Positions 338-62,525 of a stretch of DNA of 64,000 nt are shown here, in pieces; position 1 is the first letter of the stretch; the number at the start of each line of letters is the position of its first letter. This stretch comes from Patescibacteria group bacterium (lineage in GTDB: Bacteria; Patescibacteriota; Patescibacteriia; JACRDY01). The stretch spans positions 150,175-214,174 of the forward strand of contig JBAZFH010000001.1 of the NCBI GenBank assembly GCA_041653535.1. Reading direction: 5' to 3'. Both the position numbers and the translations under genes were made by a program. Under the pieces are notes generated by a model. The model made no database searches. It worked only from the letters and a program-made list of their open reading frames with translations, and was not told the origin of the DNA.

Positions 338-1246
338 TTATTCTTCGGTCGTTGCGGCAGCAGCTTCTTGCCCTGCCTCTTTTTTGGTCAGCTGTTCTTG
401 CCTGCGTAAACGTGTCATCAGGGCAAGAAGGTCGATCAAAAACGTTTTTTGGGCGACGGTTTCGGCGTTGGTGGCTATGGTGCTGCGCGATCCACGAGTC
501 GACATTTTTCCTTGGTTGTAAGGAGCGAGAAGTTTGCCGAGTGCTCTATACAACTCACGGTCGTAGACGCCGAGAATCTCGATGCATTTTCCGATACGTT
601 CGACGATCGGCCAGTCTACCATGGCTTGTTCTCCTGGTCTTAAAAAGCGGAGCGCATCTTCGGTGACAGCTGTGATAGTCTTGGTGAAGAAGGGGAAAAG
701 GAGCTTGGTTGCTTCTTTTACTATTTTTCTATCGATACCCTTGTTCGGGTCGGCGATGCGAGCGAGAAAGGTTTTGGTTGCCAGGCGGATACCGCGATTG
801 ATGACAAAGTCGTTACTTGTGTCAATAGTAAATTTAATGGCGCGCAGCAGCGTTACTTTTCCGTTCCGTTGTCTTTCTGCGTCGGCATAAAGAACATACC
901 ACTCGAGTAGCTCTTCCCACATTCGATTGGAGGCATTTTTTTCAAGCTTTTGTAACTGGGAAATGATGTTTTCCAACCAGTCGGCAAGCCATTCGTCGAT
1001 TTTATATTCGTGTCCCTTGGAGCAGGTTTTGATCGTTTCCAGGCACTGGAGGCGGACTTCGGTGATAGAGTAGCTGGCAAAGATTTGTAATTGTTTCAAG
1101 GGAAAGTCTAAGAAAGAATCCTCTTTGGCGTCAGCCATGAGACTAGCAAATCGTTGCGAAGCTAAAAGTACTGGTGGCTCTTTTTCATTGAACTTTATTG
1201 GCATCTTGATTCTCCTTTGCCCTGGTGGGCGGTTGTCAGTGAACAC
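338..1246 (-). CDS. hypothetical protein (no recognisable family; Ala/Thr/Glu-rich C-terminal tail)
   Basis: 302-codon ORF convergent with ogt. An alternative start MPIKFNE lies at ~1204. No motifs recognised. Confidence 0.5.
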   Translation of the reverse strand: MFTDNRPPGQRRIKMPIKFNEKEPPVLLASQRFASLMADAKEDSFLDFPLKQLQIFASYSITEVRLQCLETIKTCSKGHEYKIDEWLADWLENIISQLQKLEKNASNRMWEELLEWYVLYADAERQRNGKVTLLRAIKFTIDTSNDFVINRGIRLATKTFLARIADPNKGIDRKIVKEATKLLFPFFTKTITAVTEDALRFLRPGEQAMVDWPIVERIGKCIEILGVYDRELYRALGKLLAPYNQGKMSTRGSRSTIATNAETVAQKTFLIDLLALMTRLRRQEQLTKKEAGQEAAAATTEE

Positions 1247-1307: not shown

Positions 1308-1344
1308 AGGAACTGGGAATTGGGATCTGGGAATTGGGAACTAG
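1308..1344. repeat. degenerate heptad array (GGAAYTG)n containing G3N4G3N4G3N4G3 quadruplex motif
   Basis: AGGAACTGGGAATTGGGATCTGGGAATTGGGAACTAG has a 7-nt period with 4-bp palindromes (AATT/GATC/CTAG). It lies ~45 nt upstream of the prfB ATG. Confidence 0.6.
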
Positions 1345-1391
1345 AAAATTGGCGGAGTTATTACTTTTTTGCTAAAATAAAGACAGTTTTT

Positions 1392-2498
1392 ATGAAAGAA
1401 GCAGAGCTAGCAAACCAAATTAAAGAGTTAAAAGACCGAGTAGAAAAAACTCGGAGTTTGATTAATTTGGATAAATCTAAAATTGAGATTAAACAGCTGG
1501 AGAGTCAAATGTCTGCACCGGATTTTTGGGCTGATCAGGATCGAGCCAAAACCGTTTCTCAGCGACTAGCGGCACTGGGCGCTGAAATCAAAAAATGGGA
1601 CGATTTGACGGCAGCGATAGAGGAGCTAGGAGAAATTGTTGGACTGGATCAAAAAGATCAGGAGGTCAGTTTGCGGGTTGAAACCGAAGAACGGCTCGCC
1701 GCGTTAGAAAAAGAATTTGTCGATATGGAATTTCTGGTTTTGTTTGATGGAAAATATGATACTGCCAATGCAGTGGTAGCGATTCACGCCCGCGCTGGTG
1801 GAGTGGACGCTCAAGACTGGGTAGAAATACTATTACGAATGTTGATGCGTTTTTGTGAAAATAAGGGTTTTGCTGTAAAAGTACTGAGTGAATCACGTGG
1901 TGCCGAAGCGGGGATCAAGAGCATTTTTTTTGAGGTTATTGGGCGTTACGCCTATGGTTATCTTAAATCAGAAAATGGCGTTCATCGCCTGGTGCGGATT
2001 TCTCCGTTTGACGCCGAAAAAATGCGTCACACCTCTTTTGCTTTAGTCGAAATAATACCGGAGCTAGAAGAGGTGGGTGATATCGAGATAAAAGATGAAG
2101 ATTTGCGGATTGATGTTTATCGCGCCGGTGGTCATGGTGGGCAAAGTGTTAATACCACCGACTCGGCAGTGCGGATTGTTCATCTGCCCACGGGTATCAC
2201 TGTTACTTGTCAAAATGAGCGCAGTCAGCGGCAAAACAAAGAAACCGCCATGAAAGTTTTAAAATCAAAATTACATCAGTACTACCAGACTGAAATTGAA
2301 GAAGAGCGTCAGGTGCTGCGCGGCGAGTTTACCGAGGCTGCTTGGGGTAATCAAGCCCGGTCTTACGTTATCCATCCGTATAAAATGGTCAAAGATCATC
2401 GGACTGGCTATGAAACATCTGACACTGATAGTGTTTTGAACGGGGATCTGCAACCGTTTGTGGAGAGCTATCTTAAACATCTAAAGAACGGAGTATAG
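1392..2498 (+). CDS. prfB: peptide chain release factor 2
   Basis: SPF tripeptide (RISPFDA), the GGQ motif (GGQSVNTTDSAVRIVHLPTGI) and an RF2-like N-terminal coiled region. The frame is continuous with no +1 frameshift site. Confidence 0.9.
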   Translation: MKEAELANQIKELKDRVEKTRSLINLDKSKIEIKQLESQMSAPDFWADQDRAKTVSQRLAALGAEIKKWDDLTAAIEELGEIVGLDQKDQEVSLRVETEERLAALEKEFVDMEFLVLFDGKYDTANAVVAIHARAGGVDAQDWVEILLRMLMRFCENKGFAVKVLSESRGAEAGIKSIFFEVIGRYAYGYLKSENGVHRLVRISPFDAEKMRHTSFALVEIIPELEEVGDIEIKDEDLRIDVYRAGGHGGQSVNTTDSAVRIVHLPTGITVTCQNERSQRQNKETAMKVLKSKLHQYYQTEIEEERQVLRGEFTEAAWGNQARSYVIHPYKMVKDHRTGYETSDTDSVLNGDLQPFVESYLKHLKNGV

Positions 2499-29268: not shown

Positions 29269-30534
29269 TTATTTACAGGCAGTACCAGTTGCGCCACCGG
29301 CGGAATTCCAGCGAGCGGTGCCATATTCGAAATGCCACCATTCCGCACAATATCTTACCCAACCCGCTTCATGCATTATGTCTTCCAATATCTTTTTTTC
29401 CGCGGAATTTGGCGGGCGTGTACATTTTTCTTCGCAATAACATTCGTTGCCTTTGCATAAATTAACATCTACTGCTCCGCCAGTAACATGAGGGGCGTTA
29501 CAGCTGGGTTTAGCGACTCTTTTTCTTGCCGCTTGTTCGTTGCCGTATTTTATTATGGCACGCTGAAAAAGTTTATTTTGATGTTCTACCGTTCTTACGG
29601 CTGAAACAATATTAAGTCGATAGCCTTTAGCGGCGGCGTTGTTACTCGCAGCTGTAAGATAGGGGATGACTTGTGTTAACAGTCTATTATCCCCAGATGT
29701 GGCGGAAAGATTGCTATTAGTTGGTATGGCGGTTAGTTGAGAACTTTGGGCGCAGCCGGCGGCAAAAACTCCCGCTGGTGCATTGGCTGGAGGTGGGGCA
29801 TTGGGATCAACTGGATTATCTGGATTCTGTTCGGGAAAATATTGATTAGCAACCTCGTCACCGACTTCATCCATTTCGAGATTTACCGGTTCCACGTACG
29901 GCACTTTGATCGGTCGTAAATACACCAGTTCGGGATTAACCAGGTAAAGTATGGAATAACTGCCTAAAGCCAGTATTAGTCCTACGATTGAACCAATAAT
30001 ATATCCTTTTGCCGCTGTTATTCTTCCCGAATCCCCGCCTGAAGTCATCCAGATAAACCCGCCAATTACTATCATTACTACGGCTAATACCGCTGCTGCT
30101 CCCACTCCGAATTTATATAACCCACCTACCATCTGGGCGATCCAGGGTATGTAGTAATATCTGCTGCCTTTTGTTTCGCCTTGAATTTCCACTTCTTGAT
30201 CAAGGGTAACGATATTGCCGATAGTAGGTAAGCTGGGGGTTATTAGCGATTTGGTTTCATTAGTCGATTGTGAATTTATTTTGTTGTTATATTCCTCGAT
30301 TTCTTTTTTTAGCGTCTCATCGCCGCATGGCTTACTATGAAGTTTGCAGTTTGTCGCAGGGCAAATACCCGATTCGTCTGGAGCTTTAAGTTCCAGCTCC
30401 CCGGTAGGTTTATTTGGGTCTTTAGGACAAGCACAGCAGCTATTAGTCGGATCGGCTGCCAGACTTATAGCCGGATAAAAGATGATTAAAATCAGGATTA
30501 GTAAAATAATTTTAAATAAGATATTTTTTTTCAT
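29269..30534 (-). CDS. secreted Cys-rich protein with TrbC/VirB2-like pilin hairpin fused to C-terminal VanY/M15 D-Ala-D-Ala carboxypeptidase domain
   Basis: Signal peptide. Two hydrophobic helices separated by SGGDSGRITAAKG (TrbC/VirB2 topology). C-terminal SAVRTVEHQ...Q, HVTGGAVD (HxxGxAxD) and EWWH motifs of peptidase M15B. Confidence 0.65.
   Translation of the reverse strand: MKKNILFKIILLILILIIFYPAISLAADPTNSCCACPKDPNKPTGELELKAPDESGICPATNCKLHSKPCGDETLKKEIEEYNNKINSQSTNETKSLITPSLPTIGNIVTLDQEVEIQGETKGSRYYYIPWIAQMVGGLYKFGVGAAAVLAVVMIVIGGFIWMTSGGDSGRITAAKGYIIGSIVGLILALGSYSILYLVNPELVYLRPIKVPYVEPVNLEMDEVGDEVANQYFPEQNPDNPVDPNAPPPANAPAGVFAAGCAQSSQLTAIPTNSNLSATSGDNRLLTQVIPYLTAASNNAAAKGYRLNIVSAVRTVEHQNKLFQRAIIKYGNEQAARKRVAKPSCNAPHVTGGAVDVNLCKGNECYCEEKCTRPPNSAEKKILEDIMHEAGWVRYCAEWWHFEYGTARWNSAGGATGTACK
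29884..30159. repeat. 276-bp perfect direct repeat (copy A) shared by tandem paralogs; copy B at 31174-31449
   Basis: Base-by-base identical blocks 1,290 nt apart. A second shared ~38-nt block lies at 30211-30248 / 31498-31535. Confidence 0.9.
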
Positions 30535-30549
30535 ATTTTAATAGAATGA

Positions 30550-31815
30550 TTATTCTATTCTATAACCCATTTCAATACATTTTCTTATTTGACAGGCAGC
30601 TGTTTTGTCACGCGTACGTTGGTAGTCATCAATATCTACATCTTGGCAGCCGTTATCTTGCATATCTTGCGTTGGTATCCAGTTTGGATCTAACTTATCG
30701 TATTCTTCATTACTACACCAAGCGCAGCCATCGGCAGAGCCGTTGGCATCCATAAAAACGCACATACCTTTTGCTTTTGCGCTATCAAGTTGATTTATTA
30801 TTTCACAAGCTTCTTGAGATTCTTCGTCGGTTATTGTCGGATTAGGGGGCGGTAAATTTACCCAGTTTGAAGCAGAACCGCTGTCATCGATGCGGTTGCA
30901 TGCAAGTTCCGGTGAAGCCTGGCAGGAAAAAGCAATCAGATTCATTTTTAAGGCATAGCTTTTTTCTGCGCTTGGTGCGGGTAAACACATTTGGTTTCCT
31001 CCGGTACAATAACTGCCAACGCAAGGATCACCACTGGTTAAGCTCGCGCCTATTATATATGGTGTACCGCAAATTAAATTTTCTCCGGCTGGTATTTCTT
31101 TAGAGGTTTGTTCGTAAGTAAATGTTTTTTCTCCGTTCGGTGCTTCAGTGGGACAAAGTATTCCCGATAGTTCTACCGGTTCCACGTACGGCACTTTGAT
31201 CGGTCGTAAATACACCAGTTCGGGATTAACCAGGTAAAGTATGGAATAACTGCCTAAAGCCAGTATTAGTCCTACGATTGAACCAATAATATATCCTTTT
31301 GCCGCTGTTATTCTTCCCGAATCCCCGCCTGAAGTCATCCAGATAAACCCGCCAATTACTATCATTACTACGGCTAATACCGCTGCTGCTCCCACTCCGA
31401 ATTTATATAACCCACCTACCATCTGGGCGATCCAGGGTATGTAGTAATAACGATTAGGGGCTTCACCCGCAACTTCTACACTTGAATCAAGAGAGATGAT
31501 ATTGCCGATAGTAGGTAAGCTGGGGGTTATTAGCGGTTTGGTTTCTTCCTTATCATCACTTTTGTTTGCAGCGTTTATTTTGTCTTGAACTTCTTTGCTG
31601 CTGCAAGATCCGTCCCATGGTTTAGGACAGGTTCTTCCCTGTAAGTAAGGCGTGCAAGTGCCGTTGGCATCCGGCGCTCCAACCGCTTCTAGTTTGTCAC
31701 TGCCAGCTGTCTGACAGACACAGCATTGTTCGGCGGCTGAAGAAGGGATTAAGGGAAAAATAAGAAATAATAAAAGTAAAACAAATACTGTTGTTATTTT
31801 TTTATTCCTTTTCAT
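30550..31815 (-). CDS. paralogous secreted Cys-rich TrbC/VirB2-like pilin-fold protein (different C-terminal Cys-rich domain)
   Basis: Shares a 92-aa core that is 100% identical at nucleotide level (31174-31449 vs 29884-30159) with the upstream paralog. Signal peptide. C-terminal domain with ~20 Cys. Confidence 0.6.
   Translation of the reverse strand: MKRNKKITTVFVLLLLFLIFPLIPSSAAEQCCVCQTAGSDKLEAVGAPDANGTCTPYLQGRTCPKPWDGSCSSKEVQDKINAANKSDDKEETKPLITPSLPTIGNIISLDSSVEVAGEAPNRYYYIPWIAQMVGGLYKFGVGAAAVLAVVMIVIGGFIWMTSGGDSGRITAAKGYIIGSIVGLILALGSYSILYLVNPELVYLRPIKVPYVEPVELSGILCPTEAPNGEKTFTYEQTSKEIPAGENLICGTPYIIGASLTSGDPCVGSYCTGGNQMCLPAPSAEKSYALKMNLIAFSCQASPELACNRIDDSGSASNWVNLPPPNPTITDEESQEACEIINQLDSAKAKGMCVFMDANGSADGCAWCSNEEYDKLDPNWIPTQDMQDNGCQDVDIDDYQRTRDKTAACQIRKCIEMGYRIE
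31174..31449. repeat. 276-bp perfect direct repeat (copy B)
   Basis: Identical to 29884-30159. Confidence 0.9.
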
Positions 31816-33122: not shown

Positions 33123-34277
33123 TTATTCAGATAATCCGATCGCGTTTTTGAGTGCCGACCAGGTGGTGTCAAAAGGTGAGGCGATAATAGCAATAATAAT
33201 AATAATTCCAAACAAAGCCAGTAAAAGCAGAATCCCGACGACGACGCAACCGCAGCCTTCGGCTATAGCAAAGGCATTTATCGTTCCACCGATAGCTTTT
33301 TCCCGCAGTGCCTTCGGCACCTTTTTCATCTTAGCCTTCATGGTGGGTGGTACAATAATTTCTCCTGGTGATCCAAAAATTTTACTATGTCCAAAAAAAT
33401 AAGCAATATTGTGAAATAAGATATAGGCATAAGATAATCCGATCGTCGGAATAAGCTGCAGCCAGCAGCTTTTGAGCAGCGATGACGTGACGATTTGGGT
33501 TCCAGCCAATCCTTTTCCTGGTTCATCATCCATTCCTTCTTTATCATTATCTTCTTTGTCGCCTTCTTTTTTTTGGGAATTAGTATCTTGTTTTTTTTGG
33601 TCTTTTAGGTCTCTTTTATTCTGGTTTTCTTCACCTTCTTTTTCTCCTTCTTCACCTTCTTTTTCTCCTTCTTCACCTTCTTTTTCTCCTTCTTCACCTT
33701 CTTTTTCTCCTTCTTCACCTCTTGGTTCGTCGGTCGGTTGCTTGGGATTTTGTTTTTCCTCATTTTCTTCCGGTTGTTTTTCAGTCGGTGTGGGAGGCGT
33801 ATTTAGTTGTGGTTGTTCGGTTGCCTGCTCTGCTTGGTTGATAGGAGAGGTAGCGGTTTTTGATTCCGGCTCTGCTGGCGAGCCAACGTTTTCGGAAAAA
33901 CCAGAGTTAGCACCAGTGGTTTTTTTTTCAGTTATTGGTTCAGTATTTATCGTTGTCATGGTCGGGGATGGCGACGGGGGAATATTTACTCTGCCTTGAG
34001 CGGACGGTGCGTTATTTTTAAAATCATTAGTTGCTTGTTTTATTCCGTTTTTACCACTATTTGTTGTTTTTGGTTTTACTTCGTTTGCCGCTATTATCGT
34101 TTTTTGTTTTTTTTCATCTCTTAAGTCGTTAATAAGCTGTATTGCCAGACTGCGAGAAAATTCGTTGAAAACGTTTTTGTTGGAAAAAGGTGATTTTTTC
34201 TTATTAACAAAGGCAAAAACATTTTGAAGAAATGTTGGATCTTTTAGCCTATCTATTATTTTTTTATCTATATTCAT
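33123..34277 (-). CDS. acidic low-complexity protein with (EGEKEGE)n tandem repeat and C-terminal double TM anchor
   Basis: 21-nt tandem repeat at 33630-33720 encoding EEGEKEG x4-5. P/T/E-rich disordered region. Two C-terminal hydrophobic helices. Confidence 0.5.
   Translation of the reverse strand: MNIDKKIIDRLKDPTFLQNVFAFVNKKKSPFSNKNVFNEFSRSLAIQLINDLRDEKKQKTIIAANEVKPKTTNSGKNGIKQATNDFKNNAPSAQGRVNIPPSPSPTMTTINTEPITEKKTTGANSGFSENVGSPAEPESKTATSPINQAEQATEQPQLNTPPTPTEKQPEENEEKQNPKQPTDEPRGEEGEKEGEEGEKEGEEGEKEGEEGEKEGEENQNKRDLKDQKKQDTNSQKKEGDKEDNDKEGMDDEPGKGLAGTQIVTSSLLKSCWLQLIPTIGLSYAYILFHNIAYFFGHSKIFGSPGEIIVPPTMKAKMKKVPKALREKAIGGTINAFAIAEGCGCVVVGILLLLALFGIIIIIAIIASPFDTTWSALKNAIGLSE
33630..33720. 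repeat. 21-nt tandem repeat x~4.4 (ttcaccttctttttctccttc) inside CDS
   Basis: The TTCACC anchor recurs at 33630, 33651, 33672, 33693 and 33714. Confidence 0.85.
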
Positions 34278-37924: not shown

Positions 37925-38809
37925 TTAAGCCATAGAACGTAGTTTGGCGATACGGTCGTCAATCGGCGGGTGGGTGGAAAAAGCATTAGTGAGAGATTTT
38001 TTACCGCTGCCAAAAGGGTTGGCAATGTAAAGATGGGCGGTAGCACTGCCAGCTTTTTTTGTTGGCAGATTTTCATTTTTTATTTTTTCCAGAGCTCGAG
38101 CTAACCCTTCGGGGTAGCGGGTGAGAAGAGATCCTGAAGCGTCAGCCAAATATTCTCGTTTGCGTGAGATAGCGAGTTTTATCAGTTCGCTGATAATTGG
38201 AGACAAAATTAGGAGTATCAAGCCGATAATCATGAGTACGCCGTTGCCATTACTATCTCGATCATTTGATCTTCTGCCAAACATATTACTGCGCCAAAAA
38301 AAGTCAGCCAGGATACTGATGATTCCTATCAGAACAATAATTATCGTCATTAGCCTGATATCGTAATTTTTGATATGAGATAATTCGTGAGCGATCACGC
38401 CTTCCAGTTCTTCGTTTTCCAGTTTTTGTATCGCTCCAGTGGTGATAGCAATTGTCGCGTGTTGTGGATCGCGCCCAGTGGCAAAGGCATTAATAGCCGG
38501 ATCGTTGATAACGTAAACCTTTGGTGCGGGTAGACCGGCAGTGATGCAAAGATTTTCCACCATGCGGTAAACATATGGATTGTCGGTTTTTTTAATCGGC
38601 GTTGCGCCAGCACTCCAAAGTGCCACCGAATCGCCACTGTAATAACCAAAAAGACTCATGGCTGTAGAGATGACGGCGGCAATTACAAGTCCAAAATAGC
38701 CATAATCATAAAGCTGACCAAAGACTAAGCCCAAAATTAAAATCAAGGCGATAAAAATAATTATCAGCAAAACCGTTTTTCTTTTGTTGGAGTCGATTTG
38801 GGAGTACAT
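37925..38809 (-). CDS. htpX: zinc metalloprotease HtpX (peptidase M48)
   Basis: HELSHIKNYD HExxH motif, 4 TM segments, M48 layout. Confidence 0.85.
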   Translation of the reverse strand: MYSQIDSNKRKTVLLIIIFIALILILGLVFGQLYDYGYFGLVIAAVISTAMSLFGYYSGDSVALWSAGATPIKKTDNPYVYRMVENLCITAGLPAPKVYVINDPAINAFATGRDPQHATIAITTGAIQKLENEELEGVIAHELSHIKNYDIRLMTIIIVLIGIISILADFFWRSNMFGRRSNDRDSNGNGVLMIIGLILLILSPIISELIKLAISRKREYLADASGSLLTRYPEGLARALEKIKNENLPTKKAGSATAHLYIANPFGSGKKSLTNAFSTHPPIDDRIAKLRSMA

Positions 38810-38816
38810 AAAAAAT

Positions 38817-38843
38817 TAGGGACCAGGAACTAGGAGCTGGGAG
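38817..38843. repeat. degenerate heptad array (GGACCAG GAACTAG GAGCTGG GAG) filling the lemA-htpX spacer
   Basis: The 34-nt intergenic spacer consists almost entirely of 7-nt-period units related to the arrays at 1308 and 61918. Confidence 0.55.
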
Positions 38844-39410
38844 TTAAAATTTTACTTCCACGTTTTGGCGTTCTTTTTCATCAGTGATTTGGAAGAATTG
38901 ATAATCTTTGAATCCGAGCATTTTGCCAAAAAAGTTGGTAGGGAAAACTTGCAGTTTGGTGTTGAAGTCTCTAACGTTGCCGTTATAAAAGCGGCGGGAA
39001 GCCTGAATTTTGTTTTCGGTGTCAGAGAGTTCATCTTGCAGTTGTAAAAAGTTTTGTGAGGCTTTTAATTCTGGATAGCTTTCAGCCACGGCAAAAAGAG
39101 ATTTGAGCGCGCCGGAAAGAACATTTTCAGCTGCTGCTTTTTCTTCTATAGTGCCGGCGTTAAGGGCTTCGGCTCGTGCTTCGGTAACTTTGGTAAAAGT
39201 TTCACTTTCATGTTTGGAGTAACCTTTCACTGCTTCGACTAAATTCGGAATCAAGTCGTGACGACGTTTGAGCTGGACATCGATGTCTGACCAAGCTTCA
39301 TCAGTGCGATTTTTGAAACGGATTAGTCCGTTGTAGGTCAAAATCAAATAAAGAGCGATAATAACAACTAGTACAATAATCACGATTAAAATGATACTTA
39401 AAAGATCCAT
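38844..39410 (-). CDS. lemA: LemA family protein
   Basis: N-terminal TM plus LemA core (NGLIRFKNRTDEAWSDIDVQLKRRHDLIPNLVE...). Confidence 0.85.
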   Translation of the reverse strand: MDLLSIILIVIIVLVVIIALYLILTYNGLIRFKNRTDEAWSDIDVQLKRRHDLIPNLVEAVKGYSKHESETFTKVTEARAEALNAGTIEEKAAAENVLSGALKSLFAVAESYPELKASQNFLQLQDELSDTENKIQASRRFYNGNVRDFNTKLQVFPTNFFGKMLGFKDYQFFQITDEKERQNVEVKF

Positions 39411-40910: not shown

Positions 40911-41690
40911 ATGATTGGTATATTTGATTCTGGGGTAGGTGGGTTGACTGTTGTTAGAGAGGTGTTAAAACAACTGCCCAATCAGCCGATTATCTATTTT
41001 GGCGATACGGCTCGGACGCCTTATGGCAACAAAGGTCCCAAAACTATTATCCGGTATTCGCAAGAGAATACCGACTTTTTGTTATCTAAGGGCGCCAGTG
41101 TTATTGTTATTGGTTGCAACACGGCATCAGCTGTTGCTGTTGAAGCTTTGCGGGAAAAGCATCCTGACGTGCCGATTTTGGAAGTAATCACGCCAGCTGT
41201 CAGTCGAGCGGTTGCAGTTACTAAAAACAAGAAAATTGGAGTTATTGGTACTCGGGCAACGATTGCTTCGCAGATTTATACCAAGAAAATTCAGGAGATT
41301 GATTCCAGTATTAAGGTATTTTCCGCTGCTTGTCCGCTCTTTGTTCCGCTGGTGGAAGAAAACTGGCTGACACGACCCGAAACAAAAATGATAGCTCGCA
41401 GATATTTAACTGATTTTAAGAATGTTGGTATTGATACGTTAATACTTGGCTGTACGCATTATCCCTTGTTAAAAGAGGTGATTTCCGCTAAAATAGGAAA
41501 AAGAGTGGTACTGGTTGATTCAGCAGAAGAAGTGGTTAAGGAAATTACGAATTACGAATTACGAATTACGAATAAGGAGGGTGATTCGAAGTTTTATTTT
41601 AGCGATTTGACCGAGCAAGTGGGTAAAATCAGCGCCAGATGGCTCGGTGGAAAAGTTGACCTTGAAGAAACAAATTTTGAAACAAAATAA
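40911..41690 (+). CDS. murI: glutamate racemase
   Basis: IGIFDSGVGGLTV, FGDTARTPYG, VIGCNTAS, LGCTHYPLL motifs. Confidence 0.9.
   Translation: MIGIFDSGVGGLTVVREVLKQLPNQPIIYFGDTARTPYGNKGPKTIIRYSQENTDFLLSKGASVIVIGCNTASAVAVEALREKHPDVPILEVITPAVSRAVAVTKNKKIGVIGTRATIASQIYTKKIQEIDSSIKVFSAACPLFVPLVEENWLTRPETKMIARRYLTDFKNVGIDTLILGCTHYPLLKEVISAKIGKRVVLVDSAEEVVKEITNYELRITNKEGDSKFYFSDLTEQVGKISARWLGGKVDLEETNFETK
41545..41572. repeat. heptanucleotide tandem repeat (ATTACGA)x4 inside murI 3' coding region
   Basis: attacgaattacgaattacgaattacga is translated as ITNYELRITN. Confidence 0.85.
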
Positions 41691-51611: not shown

Positions 51612-51845
51612 TTGACAAAAAAAATATAAGTATTAAAATAAATAAATAAAGGTGATTGGGGTGTCCACCAAACATCCTGCCTATTTTTTGGCATTATAAC
51701 GCTTTAAAGCTATAGCTAAACCTTTAAATAACCAAGTGTTTCGCATTGGAGCGAAAAAATTGGGTGGAACCGCGGGGATAGTAAAAGCCTCGTCCCAAAA
51801 GCATTCGTTGTTAATGAGTGTTTTAGGGATGGGGCTTTTTAGTAG
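51612..51845 (+). promoter_or_regulatory. T-box riboswitch leader of thrS (promoter TTGACA-N17-TAAAAT, T-box sequence, terminator hairpin)
   Basis: The conserved T-box AAUUGGGUGGAACCGCGGG lies at ~51758-51777. The terminator AAAGCCTCGTCCC...GGGATGGGGCTTTTT lies at 51784-51840. Confidence 0.6.
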
Positions 51846-51981
51846 AAAGTTATAAAGTTTAAAGTTCAAAGAAAAATTTAATTGAACTTTATAACTTTTT
51901 ACTTTTGGTTGTTTTAACAACCAATCCCGCCTAGGCGGGATGCCGGCAAAGCCGGCACTTTATAATTATTATTTAAAACCT

Positions 51982-53784
51982 ATGTCGAAACAAGAACAAT
52001 CAATCGATAAAATTCGTCACTCATTATCGCACATCATGGCGATGGCGGTACTAAAAAGTTTTCCCAAGGCCAAAATAGCTATTGGTCCGATGATAGAAAA
52101 TGGTTTCTATTATGATTTTGACGTTGAGGGGTTAAAAGAAGAAATGCTGCCAGAGATTGAATGGGAGATGAAAAAGATTATTAAATCTGGTATTAGTTTT
52201 GAAAAAAGCGAAATGTCTTTTGCTGATGCTAGGCGGTTTTTTGAAAAGCAGCCTTATAAGCTGGAGTTGATTGATGAGCTGGAGAATAATGGTGAGAAAA
52301 ACGTTTCGATTTACAAATCCGGAGATTTTACCGACCTTTGTAAAGGTCCGCACGTTGATTCGGAAAAAGATTTGGCAGGGGTGGCTTTCAAGCTAGATAA
52401 ACTGGCTGGCGCTTATTGGCGGGGGAGCGAAAAAAATAAAATGTTGACCCGTATTTACGCTTTAGCTTTTACTTCTGCTGAAGATCTTAATCATTTTTTA
52501 AATTTACGAGCTGAAGCAGAAAAAAGAGATCATCGTGTTATTGGAAAAGAATACTTCCTTTTTGATCCGGTAGTAGGTCTGGGGTTGGCTATGTGGAAAC
52601 CAAAAGGAGCACTGCTTTGGAGAATAATAGAAGATTTTTGGTATAAGAAGCATTTAGACAGCGGATATGACTTGGTTCGTAGTCCTCATATTGGCAGTCG
52701 TATTTTATGGGAAACATCAGGCCACTGGAATTTTTATAACGATAGTATGTATCCGGTTTTGGAGGTTGGTCGTTCACTGAAAGATTATCAAGATAACGAT
52801 CATGTCGCTGAAAAGAACAAAGAAGAATATTTGTTAAAACCAATGAATTGTCCTTTTCATGTAAAGATTTACAAATCAGAGCCACACTCCTATCGAGATT
52901 TACCTTGTCGTTGGGCTGAATGCGGTACGGTATATAGATATGAAAAATCTGGGGAATTATCCGGGTTGACTCGCGTTCGTGGCTTTACTCAAGACGATGC
53001 TCATATTATATGTCGTAAGGATCAAATTGAAGAAGAGTTGAAAATGGTTGCTATGTTTATTAGGGAATATTTTGAAGCGTTTGGTTTTTATGACTATAAG
53101 GTATATTTGTCGGTTCGCGATCCAAATAATAAAGAAAAATATGCCGGTAATGACGAAGGCTGGAAGTTTACCGAAGAAATCTTGGAAAAAGTTGCTAAAG
53201 ATTTAAAACTTGACTACATCAAAGAAGAGGGTGAGGCGGCTTTTTATGGTCCAAAATTGGATTATAAGATTAAAGATGTTCTTGGTCGTGAATGGCAGTG
53301 TTCAACGTTACAGTTCGATTTTAATTTACCGGAAAGATTCGACATGACCTTTGTTAATTCTGAGGGTAAAGAGGAGAGACCTTATATGTTGCATCGAGCG
53401 TTAATGGGTTCTTTTGAAAGATTTATGGGGTTATTGATTGAGAATTATGCAGGGGCTTTTCCGGTTTGGCTCTCACCGGTACAGATAAAGATCGTTTCGG
53501 TTGGTTCGGCGCACGTTGATTTTTGTGAGCAATTAGCCGGAGAATTTAAAGCACTCGGTATTCGCGTAGAAGTCGATGATCTCAACGAGACCGTCGGTAA
53601 CAAGATTCGTAAGGCTACGGGAGAAAAAGTGCCGTATATGCTAGTGATCGGTGACAAAGAAATAGCTAGTGATAAACTACAGGTTCGTGTTCGCGGACAA
53701 AAAGATGTGGTAGAATACAGTAAAGACGAGTTTAAAAAGATGATTTTGGGCAAAATCGTTACTCGCGATAAAGAATTAAAATAA
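51982..53784 (+). CDS. thrS: threonine--tRNA ligase (lacking N-terminal TGS domain)
   Basis: HSLSHIMAMAV editing-domain motif, class II catalytic core, C-terminal anticodon-binding domain. Starts at MSKQEQ. The in-frame upstream extension overlaps leader hairpins. Confidence 0.9.
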   Translation: MSKQEQSIDKIRHSLSHIMAMAVLKSFPKAKIAIGPMIENGFYYDFDVEGLKEEMLPEIEWEMKKIIKSGISFEKSEMSFADARRFFEKQPYKLELIDELENNGEKNVSIYKSGDFTDLCKGPHVDSEKDLAGVAFKLDKLAGAYWRGSEKNKMLTRIYALAFTSAEDLNHFLNLRAEAEKRDHRVIGKEYFLFDPVVGLGLAMWKPKGALLWRIIEDFWYKKHLDSGYDLVRSPHIGSRILWETSGHWNFYNDSMYPVLEVGRSLKDYQDNDHVAEKNKEEYLLKPMNCPFHVKIYKSEPHSYRDLPCRWAECGTVYRYEKSGELSGLTRVRGFTQDDAHIICRKDQIEEELKMVAMFIREYFEAFGFYDYKVYLSVRDPNNKEKYAGNDEGWKFTEEILEKVAKDLKLDYIKEEGEAAFYGPKLDYKIKDVLGREWQCSTLQFDFNLPERFDMTFVNSEGKEERPYMLHRALMGSFERFMGLLIENYAGAFPVWLSPVQIKIVSVGSAHVDFCEQLAGEFKALGIRVEVDDLNETVGNKIRKATGEKVPYMLVIGDKEIASDKLQVRVRGQKDVVEYSKDEFKKMILGKIVTRDKELK

Positions 53785-54778: not shown

Positions 54779-54862
54779 TTGGTATGCAGGAAGCAGTATA
54801 CGGTATGCAGGGGCTAAGTATATTTCCTGTATACTGTATACTTATCCCCGTATACCTTACCT

Positions 54863-56173: not shown

Positions 56174-56179
56174 TTTTTT

Positions 56180-56326
56180 ATGAATGGCAAAAAGCTAAAA
56201 GCCGAAAAAAGGGAGAAAAAGAGCCTGAAGGCTAAAAAATTTAATAAAAAATCCGGTACACTAGCCGGTCAGGTAAAAAGAATGCAGATTAATAAAAGTT
56301 ATCGTGGAGACGTGAAGAAATTTTGA
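56180..56326 (+). CDS. possible small highly basic protein (48 aa)
   Basis: MNGKKLKAEKREKKSLKAKKFNKKSGTLAGQVKRMQINKSYRGDVKKF. Not in the ORF track (<60 aa). Followed by a perfect 9-bp hairpin at 56338-56361. Confidence 0.25.
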   Translation: MNGKKLKAEKREKKSLKAKKFNKKSGTLAGQVKRMQINKSYRGDVKKF

Positions 56327-56650
56327 TAAAAAGATAAAGGACCTTTGTAATCAAGGTCCTTTGTGGGGGCGCGCGCCAGACCAGATGGGTGAGGCGCGGT
56401 TTGAAGTTTTGTAAAGGGAAGCTTTTGGGACATTAGCTAGATTGATTTCTAGCAAAACACGATTATTGGGATAGAGTGACCGATTCCACACACGGTCTTG
56501 TTGGTGTGAAATGCACTGCCACTTAACCGTTACCCCGCTAAAAGCGTTCCCTCTGAACCTGGTTCGTTGGACAGAGATTCGTCGTTGTCGTTGCAGCGAA
56601 ATACTTCGCCACGTTTATTATAATACAATATTTAATCTTTTTTAGCTAGT

Positions 56651-60434: not shown

Positions 60435-61913
60435 TTATTCTGATTTTTTTTCGTTGTTTTGACGAGCGGCGTATGGATTGAAGACAAAATCTTTACGATC
60501 CATAGTGGCTGCCCAGGAAATACCGGTTTGATCCATGTCAACGCGGATGTATTTGGCTAGCAGTGGTTGGACGCTGTTCAATTTTTGCCAGCAGAGCTGA
60601 GCAATACGTCTGTATGAAGCGTGGCCTTTTTTGCCGCTACGTAGAGAGATAAAATGATGTAGTTCGCGTAAGTTCCAGGTAAATAGCGTCCGATGGCGAA
60701 AAGCTAGCGGTACCAAGTATCCGGCTTCAAAAGGAAACTTGGTACTGATTTTTTGGTAAGCGTCAGCAGCGGCATCCATGGCTTTTTTGTAATCATCGCC
60801 AAATCCAGCCTCGACAATTTCGTCCGGAGTTTCGTAGCCGTGAACAGCGGTGACTAATTGGTTAGTTTGCGTGCACATACGGTGACGTTGGACGTCGCGG
60901 AAAGCACCGTAGTCCATTAGGATGTCAAAAGTATAATAGATGTGTTCAAATTCACGTAAGGGCGCGTCAAAGGTAGCACGGCGATTCAGCGCCTCGTCGA
61001 TGATTTTTTCTTTTTGATTCGTTGTCATTTGCTTTACTTGTTCGATTATTTGCTGATAGGGAATGTCTGAGAAGCGGTAAAGCAGGGCGGCAATCAGTTT
61101 ATTCTCAGCGTCGGTGTCGTAGTCGACGATATTTACCGGTTCTTCGGTTGGTTGGATTTGTTTTCTATTAAATATTTCAGAAGCGATATTTTTCAGGGAT
61201 TTGCCGGTAGCTTTTTGGTATTCGTTAATATCGGCGAATTTGATCAATGTCGGCACTTCGGCAATGCCGGCATTTTTTATATCTTCGCCAATATTATTCA
61301 TTTCCTGGAGTGGATGAGAAAGTAGTTTGACTATCAAGTGTTCGAGCGTTCTGGCGTTCACTGTCATGCCAAGATTAGTTAGTGTACCGGCCGGCAGTAA
61401 GTAACGGGCGTTATCGCAGGTACGAGATTTGCAAACACTGGCATAAATTTTTTCGCCTTGTTCTGGAGTTGGCGGATATTTATTTTTAATAAACTCGCCT
61501 AACGGACCCATGATTTTTTCGTAAGTATCAAAAAGCAGATTGATAGTATTTTTGTATAAATCGGCAAATTCCGAGTTCATTATGTTTTCCGGGTAATAAC
61601 ATCGGTCGCGGGTAAAGATTTGATAGCGAGTAGATTTTTCAGTGAAAGAAGCGAGACGGCAATCCTCGATGATTTTGGTGGCAATAATAGAAACGTTTTC
61701 CATGGCAATGGAAAGGAAGGCATGTTCGGCAACAGAGGAATGGCCATAGCCGACTACCCACTTTTCATGAAATTCCGCTGATTTGGCTTCGGTTAGCTCT
61801 TTAGCAATTTCGTCAAAAGACTCTGGACTACGTGAACATTTGGCGAAAGTCACGGCGCGGACTTCGGGCATAAGTTCGTGGCTAAGAGTGTAGATACGGC
61901 GGACATTAGACAT
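60435..61913 (-). CDS. thyX: FAD-dependent thymidylate synthase ThyX, tandem-duplicated (pseudo-dimeric) form
   Basis: The N-half has GHSSVAEH but a degenerate RHR. The C-half has PLREFEHIYYTFD plus RDVQRHRMCTQ (RHR motif) and LRSGKKGHASYRRIA. Confidence 0.8.
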   Translation of the reverse strand: MSNVRRIYTLSHELMPEVRAVTFAKCSRSPESFDEIAKELTEAKSAEFHEKWVVGYGHSSVAEHAFLSIAMENVSIIATKIIEDCRLASFTEKSTRYQIFTRDRCYYPENIMNSEFADLYKNTINLLFDTYEKIMGPLGEFIKNKYPPTPEQGEKIYASVCKSRTCDNARYLLPAGTLTNLGMTVNARTLEHLIVKLLSHPLQEMNNIGEDIKNAGIAEVPTLIKFADINEYQKATGKSLKNIASEIFNRKQIQPTEEPVNIVDYDTDAENKLIAALLYRFSDIPYQQIIEQVKQMTTNQKEKIIDEALNRRATFDAPLREFEHIYYTFDILMDYGAFRDVQRHRMCTQTNQLVTAVHGYETPDEIVEAGFGDDYKKAMDAAADAYQKISTKFPFEAGYLVPLAFRHRTLFTWNLRELHHFISLRSGKKGHASYRRIAQLCWQKLNSVQPLLAKYIRVDMDQTGISWAATMDRKDFVFNPYAARQNNEKKSE

Positions 61914-61917
61914 AAAA

Positions 61918-61968
61918 TTGGGGCTAGGAATTAGGAGTTGGGAACTAGGATCTAGGAACTAGGAATGC
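61918..61968. repeat. degenerate heptad array (GANYTRG)x7 abutting thyX start codon
   Basis: TTGGGGCTAG GAATTAG GAGTTGG GAACTAG GATCTAG GAACTAG GAATGC. Confidence 0.6.
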
Positions 61969-61994: not shown

Positions 61995-62023
61995 TCTCCC
62001 TTCGGGAGATGTCCCGAAGGGAC
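61995..62023. other. twin adjacent perfect hairpins with UUCG and GAAG tetraloops
   Basis: TCTCCC-ttcg-GGGAGA immediately followed by GTCCC-gaag-GGGAC. The same loop types appear on either strand. Confidence 0.6.
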
Positions 62024-62048
62024 AGAAATTAAGAAATAATTTTTACTC

Positions 62049-62089
62049 TGGACTGTGGACTGTGGGCTCTGGACTTGGGATCCCGGACC
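62049..62089. repeat. second heptad array (GGACTGT GGACTGT GGGCTCT GGACTTG GGATCCC GGACC) abutting dut stop
   Basis: 7-nt period with GG(A/G)CT cores. Confidence 0.55.
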
Positions 62090-62093
62090 GATT

Positions 62094-62525
62094 TTATTTT
62101 CCGGTTGAGCCGTAGCCACCGCGACTGTTGCTTTGCATTTGATCAGTTTCTTCCCATTCGGTTTTATCGATACGGATAAAAACGGCTTGCCCGATGCGTT
62201 CGCCTCGGTCAATCGTTACTTTATTGTCCGTGAAATTATAGACTTGCAAAAGAATCTCGTCTTTTTCACCGCAATAGTCTTGATCAACTATACCCAGGCC
62301 GTGGGGAATTAGTAGACCTTTTCTTTTCGGTGTGCTGGAACGAGGAACTATTGCTAGCATATAGCCGGGAGGTGTTTCGATGATTAAGTTGGTGGGAATC
62401 ACGGAGACGGTTTTAGCAGGTATAGTCATGGCTGTCCTGCTATATAAATCAAAAGCTACCGACCCGGGAGTTTGATAGTCGGGTAGTGGCAAATCTTTTT
62501 CGATTCTCTTTATTTTAACTTTCAT
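62094..62525 (-). CDS. dut: dUTP diphosphatase
   Basis: Conserved dUTPase motifs (AFDLYS, PRSS..KKGL, GIVDQDYCGE, RIAQ). Confidence 0.9.
   Translation of the reverse strand: MKVKIKRIEKDLPLPDYQTPGSVAFDLYSRTAMTIPAKTVSVIPTNLIIETPPGYMLAIVPRSSTPKRKGLLIPHGLGIVDQDYCGEKDEILLQVYNFTDNKVTIDRGERIGQAVFIRIDKTEWEETDQMQSNSRGGYGSTGK

Follow-up and report, generated by a model that had tools for sequence, protein, structure and literature searches.

In most genomes, heptanucleotide repeats are reported to outnumber all other long SSRs, and polymerase slippage, linked to the polymerase footprint, has been proposed as their cause (Mrazek 2007, as summarised in PMC4679880). G-rich heptamer repeats were described by Rehm 2015, with units such as GGGAATC in Xanthomonas and GGGGA(C/T)T in Nostoc; they form heterogeneous (GGGANTN)n arrays, most commonly of four units, which are 68-93% intergenic, are found near ORF ends, lie further away when upstream on the coding strand, and sometimes occur as inverted pairs (PMC4692102). 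The oligonucleotide (GGGAATC)3GGG formed a K+-dependent G-quadruplex (G4) in vitro, with a T1/2 of 50.4 C in 100 mM KCl, and location-dependent G4 effects on E. coli promoters are cited in the same paper, whose authors identified no regulatory role for the repeats (PMC4692102). Another study, MacGregor 2015, reported TAACTGA heptamers from marine Beggiatoaceae, cyanobacteria and Bacteroidetes; they precede start codons by a few nucleotides where the spacer has no ribosome-binding site, and S1, Csp or CsrA was proposed to bind them (PMC4679880).

A degenerate form of the array pattern analysed here was scanned against one genome per species and gave at least 120 matching stretches. The matches listed came from cyanobacteria, Xanthomonadales, Planctomycetota, Acidobacteriota, Bacteroidota, Verrucomicrobiota, Chloroflexota and Firmicutes, with units that included GGGATTA, GGGACTG, GGAGTTA, GGAATTG and GGGGCTA, often alternating as in the arrays described below; no CPR genome was among the matches listed for this permissive pattern. 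The repeat class is widespread, and both the class and its G4-capable subset are already published, while no description from Patescibacteria was found in the literature. In this study, we report four short heptamer arrays from a Patescibacteria (CPR) genome, compare them with the spacers of related genomes, and weigh the explanations that have been put forward for them.

The sequence analysed is a stretch of 64,000 nucleotides from a Patescibacteria group bacterium, referred to here as the window. Its GC content is 38-44%, and the GC skew is positive throughout, so that the window lies on one replichore. About 5% of the window is non-coding. The genes flanking the arrays, confirmed using NCBIfam, are prfB (1392..2498, +), htpX (37925..38809, -), a LemA-like gene (38844..39410, -; lemA below), thyX (60435..61913, -) and dut (62094..62525, -). 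The nearest other genomes, in which HtpX and prfB are 70-77% identical, resemble Falkowbacteria or Buchananbacteria. The only other assemblies of the organism itself, the Logan contigs L204 and L207, are identical to the window over 12.5 kb and 4.6 kb and were joined to it to give a 74-kb set for this genome. The four arrays are as follows.

A1: positions 1309-1343, + strand, five heptamers GGAACTG GGAATTG GGATCTG GGAATTG GGAACTA
A2: positions 38819-38846, + strand, four heptamers GGGACCA GGAACTA GGAGCTG GGAGTTA
A3: positions 61920-61968, + strand, seven heptamers GGGGCTA GGAATTA GGAGTTG GGAACTA GGATCTA GGAACTA GGAATGC
A4: positions 62050-62091, + strand, six heptamers GGACTGT GGACTGT GGGCTCT GGACTTG GGATCCC GGACCGA

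An earlier note on this DNA, made from the letters alone, had located four G-rich arrays of 7-nt period at these sites, and reading of the sites bore this out, with a GG-N5 register and the G-rich strand on + in every case. Each array consists of 4-7 in-register, head-to-tail 7-nt units, as in heptanucleotide long SSRs or STRRs, with a unit identity of 76-88% within arrays. The units of A1-A3 belong to one family, GGAAYTR, and those of A4 to a different one, GGACTNT. The alternation of units produces a 14-nt super-period, with 88% matches in A1 by TRF, which recovered A1, A3 and A4 at period 7/14. The suggestion that the arrays are no CRISPR also holds, since the units are 7 nt long and contiguous, whereas CRISPR repeats measure 24-48 nt and alternate with unique spacers of like length.

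Chance does not account for the four arrays. A search of the window for three GG-N5 units followed by GG returned four clusters on the + strand, which are A1-A4, and none on the - strand, compared with 0.51 clusters per 64 kb expected from second-order Markov simulation; moreover, four GGRNYTR units followed by GG gave four matches, against 0.00 in 100 dinucleotide shuffles. All four arrays fall within the non-coding 4.6% of the window, in three spacers up to 60 kb apart, and the earlier note's view of a non-random, dispersed family near gene boundaries is upheld to this extent. The frequency of the arrays is above the composition expectation. However, seven of the eight orthologous spacers read in relatives do not have these arrays, so that the refuting test set in the earlier note, absence from the orthologous spacers of relatives, largely went against its reading.

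The period itself is not confined to the four sites. Autocorrelation of the spacers in the window gave peaks at lags 7, 14 and 21 (z 5.6, 4.4 and 1.7), and the peaks at lags 7 and 14 remained when the three array-bearing spacers were removed (z 3.0 and 2.5). A strict lag test over lags 6-12 on the 74-kb set found non-coding tandem arrays at lag 7 only. Additionally, in 935 kb of CPR-like loci, 10% of which is non-coding, 64 of the 106 non-coding arrays of at least three copies had period 7, compared with 17 at period 8, 9 at period 9 and at most 5 at any other period. Period 7 is thus a property of this genome and its relatives and not of the four arrays alone; among the spacer tandem repeats of these very compact genomes without Shine-Dalgarno sequences, no other class comes near the 7-nt arrays in number. 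Some relatives have them in the majority of their spacers, and they are frequently found right next to start and stop codons. Elsewhere in the genome studied, the nrdR stop codon is directly followed by (TTGGTAG)x4, with (CTAATCA/CTAACCA)x5 further downstream, heptamers adjoin the rplK start, and three further features are built from heptamers.

41543..41573, + strand: perfect (AATTACG) x4.4 array, inside the 3' end of a murI-like ORF (40911..41690)
51842..51905, + strand: hairpin with AAAGTTn / AACTTTn heptamer arms, 3' of a sub-threshold T-box leader
54779..54862, + strand: hairpin taking up the whole spacer, MFE z-score -7.5

The arms of the last of these are GGTATGC AGGAAGC AGTATAC GGTATGC and CCTGTAT ACTGTAT ACTTATC CCCGTAT, and the hairpin at 51842..51905 looks like a terminator.

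The units vary from spacer to spacer in related loci (GAATCAT, GCTGTTC, CTAGCAG, TACGAAT, CATGTAA, TTTATTA and others). Exact unit sharing between genomes was 0.0062, against 0.0064 in composition-matched shuffles, and sharing at one mismatch or fewer was slightly above the shuffles (0.071 vs 0.062). A shared heptamer vocabulary or an origin from a mobile element was considered and not supported, the sharing being at shuffle level and the arrays having no flanking dispersed element.

The spacer that contains array A1, 1205-1391, separates two divergent genes; the array is 48 nt away from the ATG of prfB (1392) and 104 nt from that of the gene 338..1204 (-). Use of the ATG at 1392 as the prfB start is supported by the TIGR00020 match, which begins at residue 10 of the 368-aa product. 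A practical point is that the gene callers of two annotation pipelines extend prfB straight across A1 (P0122, 419 aa; P0123, 453 aa). Between A1 and the start codon lies the following element.

1349..1378, + strand: predicted prfB promoter, -35 box TTGGCG at 1349, 18-nt spacer, extended -10 box TGCTAAAAT

This site, which reads TTGGCG, 18 nt and TG-n-TAAAAT ending at 1378, is the only sigma-70-like one within 1100-1500. In L205, the closest relative with a long contig (prfB 71% identical), CTAGAAAATTGG followed by a TGnTAAnAT box is found upstream of prfB; the conservation is partial, the spacing between CTAGAAAATTGG and the box being shorter than in the window, and L205 is without the gene divergent to prfB. 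The consensus match and this partial conservation predict a prfB transcription start near 1385 with a leader of about 7 nt, so that A1 would occupy about -42 to -77, on the 5' side of the -35 box. The earlier note had assigned A1 to the prfB 5' UTR; with the only sigma-70-like site downstream of the array and partly conserved in L205, that assignment was not sustained, and A1 probably lies outside the prfB transcript.

The G3N4G3N4G3N4G3 motif that had been called a textbook intramolecular quadruplex sequence was confirmed exactly at 1315-1338; neither strand of the window has a second G3+N1-7 x4 motif. The oligonucleotide corresponding to this core reads GGGAATTGGGATCTGGGAATTGGG. Folding using ViennaRNA with G-quadruplex energies, the prediction step proposed in the earlier note, returned A1 as a G4, at -11.2 kcal/mol with flanks, and by likeness to (GGGAATC)3GGG, which has similar 4-nt loops, A1 should fold as a G4 in vitro. 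On this basis A1 could act as a G4 switch, either in the non-template DNA upstream of the prfB promoter or as RNA, and modulate prfB and/or the divergent gene; negative supercoiling would come from divergent transcription, the promoter effects cited for E. coli in PMC4692102 offer a precedent, and A2-A4 would have to work via weaker two-tetrad G4s or i-motifs. We consider this reading improbable. The same folding predicted no G4 in A2-A4, which consist mostly of GG runs, and A1 alone of the four arrays has at least four consecutive units with a G3+ tract, so that G4 formation is not the shared property of the family and the notion of a family-wide G4 switch does not survive. Moreover, A1 is probably not transcribed with prfB, and the authors of the closest study found no regulatory role. 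No G-rich array is present upstream of prfB in the relatives: L205 has a leader hairpin of (TACGAAT)n and (ATTCGTA)n there, one arm of which is built of the unit ATTCGTA, the reverse complement of the unit of the 41543..41573 array, and L213 has a 30-nt spacer. A prfB scan of metagenomes yielded only relatives of 60% identity or less, in which the region upstream of prfB shows no synteny. That A1 could form a G4 is explained by the GGG in its unit, without any need for selection.

The other arrays are placed against genes of one orientation: the G-rich strand is + in all four, but A2-A4 touch only - strand genes and A1, between divergent genes, is ambiguous, so that the window offers a single clear gene orientation for the earlier note's remark that the strand is + regardless of gene direction. 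The lemA-htpX spacer is 34 nt long (38810-38843) and had been said to consist of essentially nothing but array, which proved correct, as besides A2 it holds only AAAAAATTA. The last A2 unit overlaps the end of lemA and supplies its stop codon. On the mRNA, transcribed from the - strand, A2 reads CUCCCAGCUCCUAGUUCCUGGUCCC, followed by UAAUUUUUU AUG. A2 is 9 nt from the htpX ATG, and A3, which is C-rich on the thyX sense strand, comes within 6 nt of the thyX (-) start codon (61913) on its upstream side; at these distances from start codons, both must be inside mRNAs. A gap of 2 nt separates A4 from the dut (-) stop codon at 62094. The sense strand of the dut-thyX spacer counts 52 C and 26 G, and between A3 and A4 the spacer contains one further element.

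61995..62024, no strand assigned: palindromic module TCTCCCTTCGGGAGA / TGTCCCGAAGGGACA

The module can fold as two small hairpins or as one 11-bp hairpin and has no Rfam match. The spacer folded with a z-score of about -3 on either strand, a signal that is due to this central palindrome and not to the arrays. A search of the array spacers against Rfam returned no family at the gathering threshold or at E < 1.

These positions raise the possibility of a cis-acting RNA element on the - strand transcripts, in which CCUAG or UCCCA every 7 nt would keep the htpX and thyX leaders single-stranded and serve as a loading or standby site for S1 and the 30S subunit, for a KH/Csp-type protein or, in rut-like fashion past the dut stop codon, for Rho. 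The setting is suitable, as a Shine-Dalgarno sequence is absent in 46 of the 47 genes, the exception being the lineage-specific gene 338..1204 (AAGGAG). Since the genome uses no Shine-Dalgarno sequences, the arrays are not stand-ins for ribosome-binding sites, and Shine-Dalgarno replacement or anti-Shine-Dalgarno mimicry was rejected on this count. The placement of A2 and A3 within mRNAs, the C excess of the dut-thyX sense strand, and a likeness to the start-proximal TAACTGA repeats with their proposed binding of S1, Csp or CsrA (PMC4679880) all favour an RNA element. Against this, arrays within 25 nt of a start in related loci were G>C on the sense strand in 15 cases and C>G in 18, with unrelated units; the 15 vs 18 count also disposed of a rule by which start-proximal arrays would be C-rich and stop-proximal arrays G-rich on the sense strand. 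The element would moreover be dispensable, as the dut-thyX spacer of L208 is only 13 nt long, and A1 does not fit it. An RNA element is for these reasons given a minor share of our confidence, as a tentative and rather unlikely alternative.

A role as sites for a DNA-binding regulator or a methyltransferase is less probable still, and we regard it as very unlikely. The earlier note had offered a regulator-binding array and a methylation-sensitive element (GATC/CTAG). In the form weighed here, the arrays would be sites for a regulator, or for a methyltransferase (GATC, CTAG, AATT), and form an epigenetic or transcriptional switch; a related form is an RNA target of NAG-N4 type for a HutP/TRAP-like ring protein. 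The GGAAYTR units common to A1-A3 speak for such sites, as does the + strand of A3, which reads TAG-N4 repeatedly, TAG-N4 being the spacing of HutP sites. Thirteen 4-bp palindromes are embedded in the 154 nt of arrays, against about 10 expected, a count that is inflated because the units repeat. However, successive sites at a 7-bp period would be 240 degrees apart on B-DNA, out of helical phase, the units change from one spacer or genome to the next, orthologous spacers have not kept the sites, and no regulator gene lies beside the arrays; the regulator-binding array thus found no footing. The methylation-sensitive element fared no better, as GATC is found at 0.87 and CTAG at 1.12 of the Markov expectation, frequencies on which selection for methylation sites was rejected. 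The + strand is antisense to every neighbour gene of A2-A4, and operators of CsrA (GGA) or HutP/TRAP (NAG-N4) type would need + strand transcripts; for HutP/TRAP in particular, TAG-N4 is antisense to the neighbours of A2-A4, and A1 is probably upstream of the promoter. From the variation in sequence and the non-conservation, we infer that the arrays are not sites for a sequence-specific factor.

The comparison with orthologous spacers revealed a different kind of kinship. The sole exception among the eight is the syntenic lemA-htpX spacer of L121 (HtpX 77% identical), which contains GGGGCTA/GGAACTA units as in A2 and A3. It reads TAGTAGC TAGGGGC TAGTAGC TAGGAAC TAGGG, a loop, and then CCTAGCCCCGAACTACTAGCCCCTAGTCCC TTCTTT ATG, so that the units pair into a hairpin, with the C-rich arm next to the ATG, like A2. 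Upstream of htpX in L210, L211, L212 and L214 there are hairpins of unrelated sequence. Because orthologous spacers differ in this way, arrays of this kind are common but short-lived at any one site. Paired heptamer arms are found in most spacers of L121, L205 and L213 and, in the genome studied, in nrdR-nrdD, 51842-51905 and 54779-54862; moreover, 37% of co-directional spacers in related loci fold with z < -2, compared with 12% of coding controls.

This suggests that A1-A4 might be orphan arms, left after the loss of one arm of a hairpin or deposited by a MITE-like element, the original hairpin having been an intercistronic terminator, a processing site or a coupling site. The G-rich arm, loop and C-rich arm of the same units in L121, the paired arms and the folding excess just described, and an 80-nt hairpin element common to L212 and L213 at different loci are consistent with such an origin, and it is plausible that A2 goes back to the arm nearest the start codon in a paired element. 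On the other side, none of A1-A4 has an inverted partner, and A3 and A4 share both spacer and polarity; no dispersed element including the array flanks, and no target duplications, were found in the window, and unit vocabularies are not shared beyond chance. The reading accounts for the origin of A2 only and is compatible with slippage. As an explanation for the arrays as a whole we hold it to be doubtful.

The explanation that we consider probable, though by no means secure, is that the arrays are short, partly decayed heptanucleotide microsatellites, produced by slippage and put up with by the spacers. Replication slippage, with its preference in bacteria for units of 7 nt, would generate the arrays, and they would persist where the few spacers of a streamlined, Shine-Dalgarno-free genome tolerate heptamer repeats. 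There they would affect how long the untranslated RNA or DNA at gene boundaries is, and its base composition; in the htpX and thyX mRNAs they would provide G-poor, C-rich leaders, followed by the usual A/U-rich stretch before the AUG. Occasionally, two inverted copies may be recruited as the arms of a hairpin in a spacer, and A2 has the look of a surviving start-proximal arm.

Several observations call the slippage reading into question. Local slippage alone is questioned by the GGAAYTR units common to A1-A3 at three distant loci, and by the recurrence of these units in the L121 spacer though HtpX is only 77% identical; the alternation of units with a 14-nt super-period does not suit decayed perfect repeats. 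Neutrality is questioned because a genome of about 5% non-coding DNA should purge useless sequence, and because the arrays sit directly against the htpX and thyX start codons. The strand bias also counts against slippage: seven arrays of the 74-kb set have a strong G/C bias, and in six of them the G-rich strand is + (binomial p = 0.125). Variation in copy number, the signature expected of slippage, was not seen between the window and the identical contigs L204 and L207. An identification of the G-rich strand with the leading strand was rejected for related loci, where it was concordant with local GC skew in 11 cases and discordant in 7 (p = 0.48). The unit sharing, the super-period and the contact with start codons therefore lend some weight to an RNA leader or to orphan hairpin arms; little weight is given to a G4 switch or to protein binding and methylation.

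A broader proposal, which we put forward as speculative and rather unlikely, is that heptamer arrays provide the components for spacer elements that form a system throughout the Patescibacteria, made up of stop-to-start hairpins together with single C-rich or G-rich arms. If true, spacer elements would organise termination, mRNA processing or translational coupling in Shine-Dalgarno-free genomes, and unit families would have persisted over long times, GGAACTA/GGGGCTA in the lemA-htpX spacers of two genomes with 77% identical HtpX being a case in point. By themselves, the arrays extend to the CPR a class of repeats whose role has been in question since 1990, and the Patescibacteria offer a clean system in which to ask whether heptamers are a mutational by-product of the replisome or selected spacer, hairpin or leader material.

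Among the described systems, the repeats of Rehm 2015 are similar in having tandem 7-nt units that begin with a run of G, are intergenic and dispersed, number about four per array and lie within 50 bp of ORF ends. The placement corresponds for A2 and A3, which lie upstream of their genes with the G-rich units on the non-coding strand; A1, which is G4-capable, lies further off (48 nt) on the coding strand, and A4 is downstream of dut, on the non-coding strand. Unlike those repeats, three of the four arrays here have GG and not GGG tracts and no canonical G4, the units are GGAAYTR and GGACTNT, and the host is an AT-rich CPR genome with roughly 5% non-coding DNA, whereas the hosts there have large genomes. 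With the STRR of heterocystous cyanobacteria and other long SSRs the arrays share head-to-tail heptamers over-represented in intergenic DNA, but STRR are usually longer and nearly perfect, compared with the 4-7 alternating units of 76-88% identity found here. The TAACTGA repeats, with 2-6 copies near starts without Shine-Dalgarno sequences and downstream genes without a common functional theme, are matched by A2 (9 nt) and A3 (6 nt); there, however, one fixed unit is used genome-wide, suggesting a specific binder, and here the units vary by locus. Intrinsic terminators and REP/BIME hairpins are approached by the relatives and by other spacers of this genome, which use paired heptamer arrays as arms, whereas A1-A4 have no inverted partner and form no hairpin alone. 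In this comparison, A1-A4 are ordinary members of the known bacterial 7-nt tandem repeats, in a Patescibacteria (CPR) host.

The start of prfB was placed further upstream in the JGI and Logan gene calls, which give products of 453 and 419 aa (P0123 and P0122; extension within 1137-1391), and array A1, the G-rich heptamer array at 1309..1343 (+) upstream of the prfB ATG at 1392, is therefore translated in these calls. The RF2 family model fits the 368-aa NCBI call, and the programmed +1 frameshift site was absent from prfB in the window. A Shine-Dalgarno motif was lacking in 46 of the 47 genes of the window, where A/T-rich sequence precedes the ATG; the sole exception was the gene at 338..1204 (-), which carries AAGGAG 8 nt upstream. 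Its 288-aa product had no family match, and the gene was probably acquired, since it is missing from the syntenic position in two loci of related Patescibacteria, L205 and L213.

In related Patescibacteria, inverted 7-8-nt tandem arrays form hairpin arms in most co-directional spacers (L121, 900-15743; L205, 9840-10000; L213, 1263-16589), extending from the stop codon to a few nt upstream of the next start codon, with a repeat unit that differs from spacer to spacer. One 80-nt hairpin element (ATCACATAACATGGAACACATAACAAG ... CTTGTTCCATGTT..ATGTGAT), with permuted heptamer units in its second arm, was found at different loci of two assemblies (L212, 904-1009; L213, 12115-12313), and may represent a small mobile element. 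Within the window, AAAGTTn heptamers build the arms of a hairpin at 51842-51905, which looks like a terminator. It lies downstream of a sub-threshold match to the T-box leader (RF00230; E 2.9e-9) at 51624-51800 (+), which precedes a 614-aa gene at 51940..53784 and reached 46 bits, where the gathering score is 93.

Tandem repeats were also located inside genes. A perfect (AATTACG) x4.4 repeat at 41543-41573 (+) lies within the 3' end of a murI-like ORF (40911..41690) and is followed by AAGGAGG; coding sequence with a 7-nt repeat unit is prone to frameshifting. A perfect 21-nt x4.5 repeat (TTCTTCACCTTCTTTTTCTCC) at 33627-33720, within the gene at 33123..34277 (-), gives a 7-residue repeat in the protein. 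The adjacent paralogues 29269..30534 and 30550..31815 share a 281-nt stretch that is 99% identical (29879-30159 versus 31169-31449), suggesting recent gene conversion.

The 477-nt spacer at 56174-56650, with a relatively high GC of 0.41, contained no ORF and matched none of the Rfam families, also with the cut-off relaxed to E < 0.1, and may encode an undescribed or divergent non-coding RNA. Over the whole window, GGCC was strongly under-represented, with 45 occurrences versus 182 expected from trinucleotides, while the counts of other 4-bp palindromes were close to expectation. Judged from these counts, the depletion suggests pressure from a restriction system of the HaeIII type.
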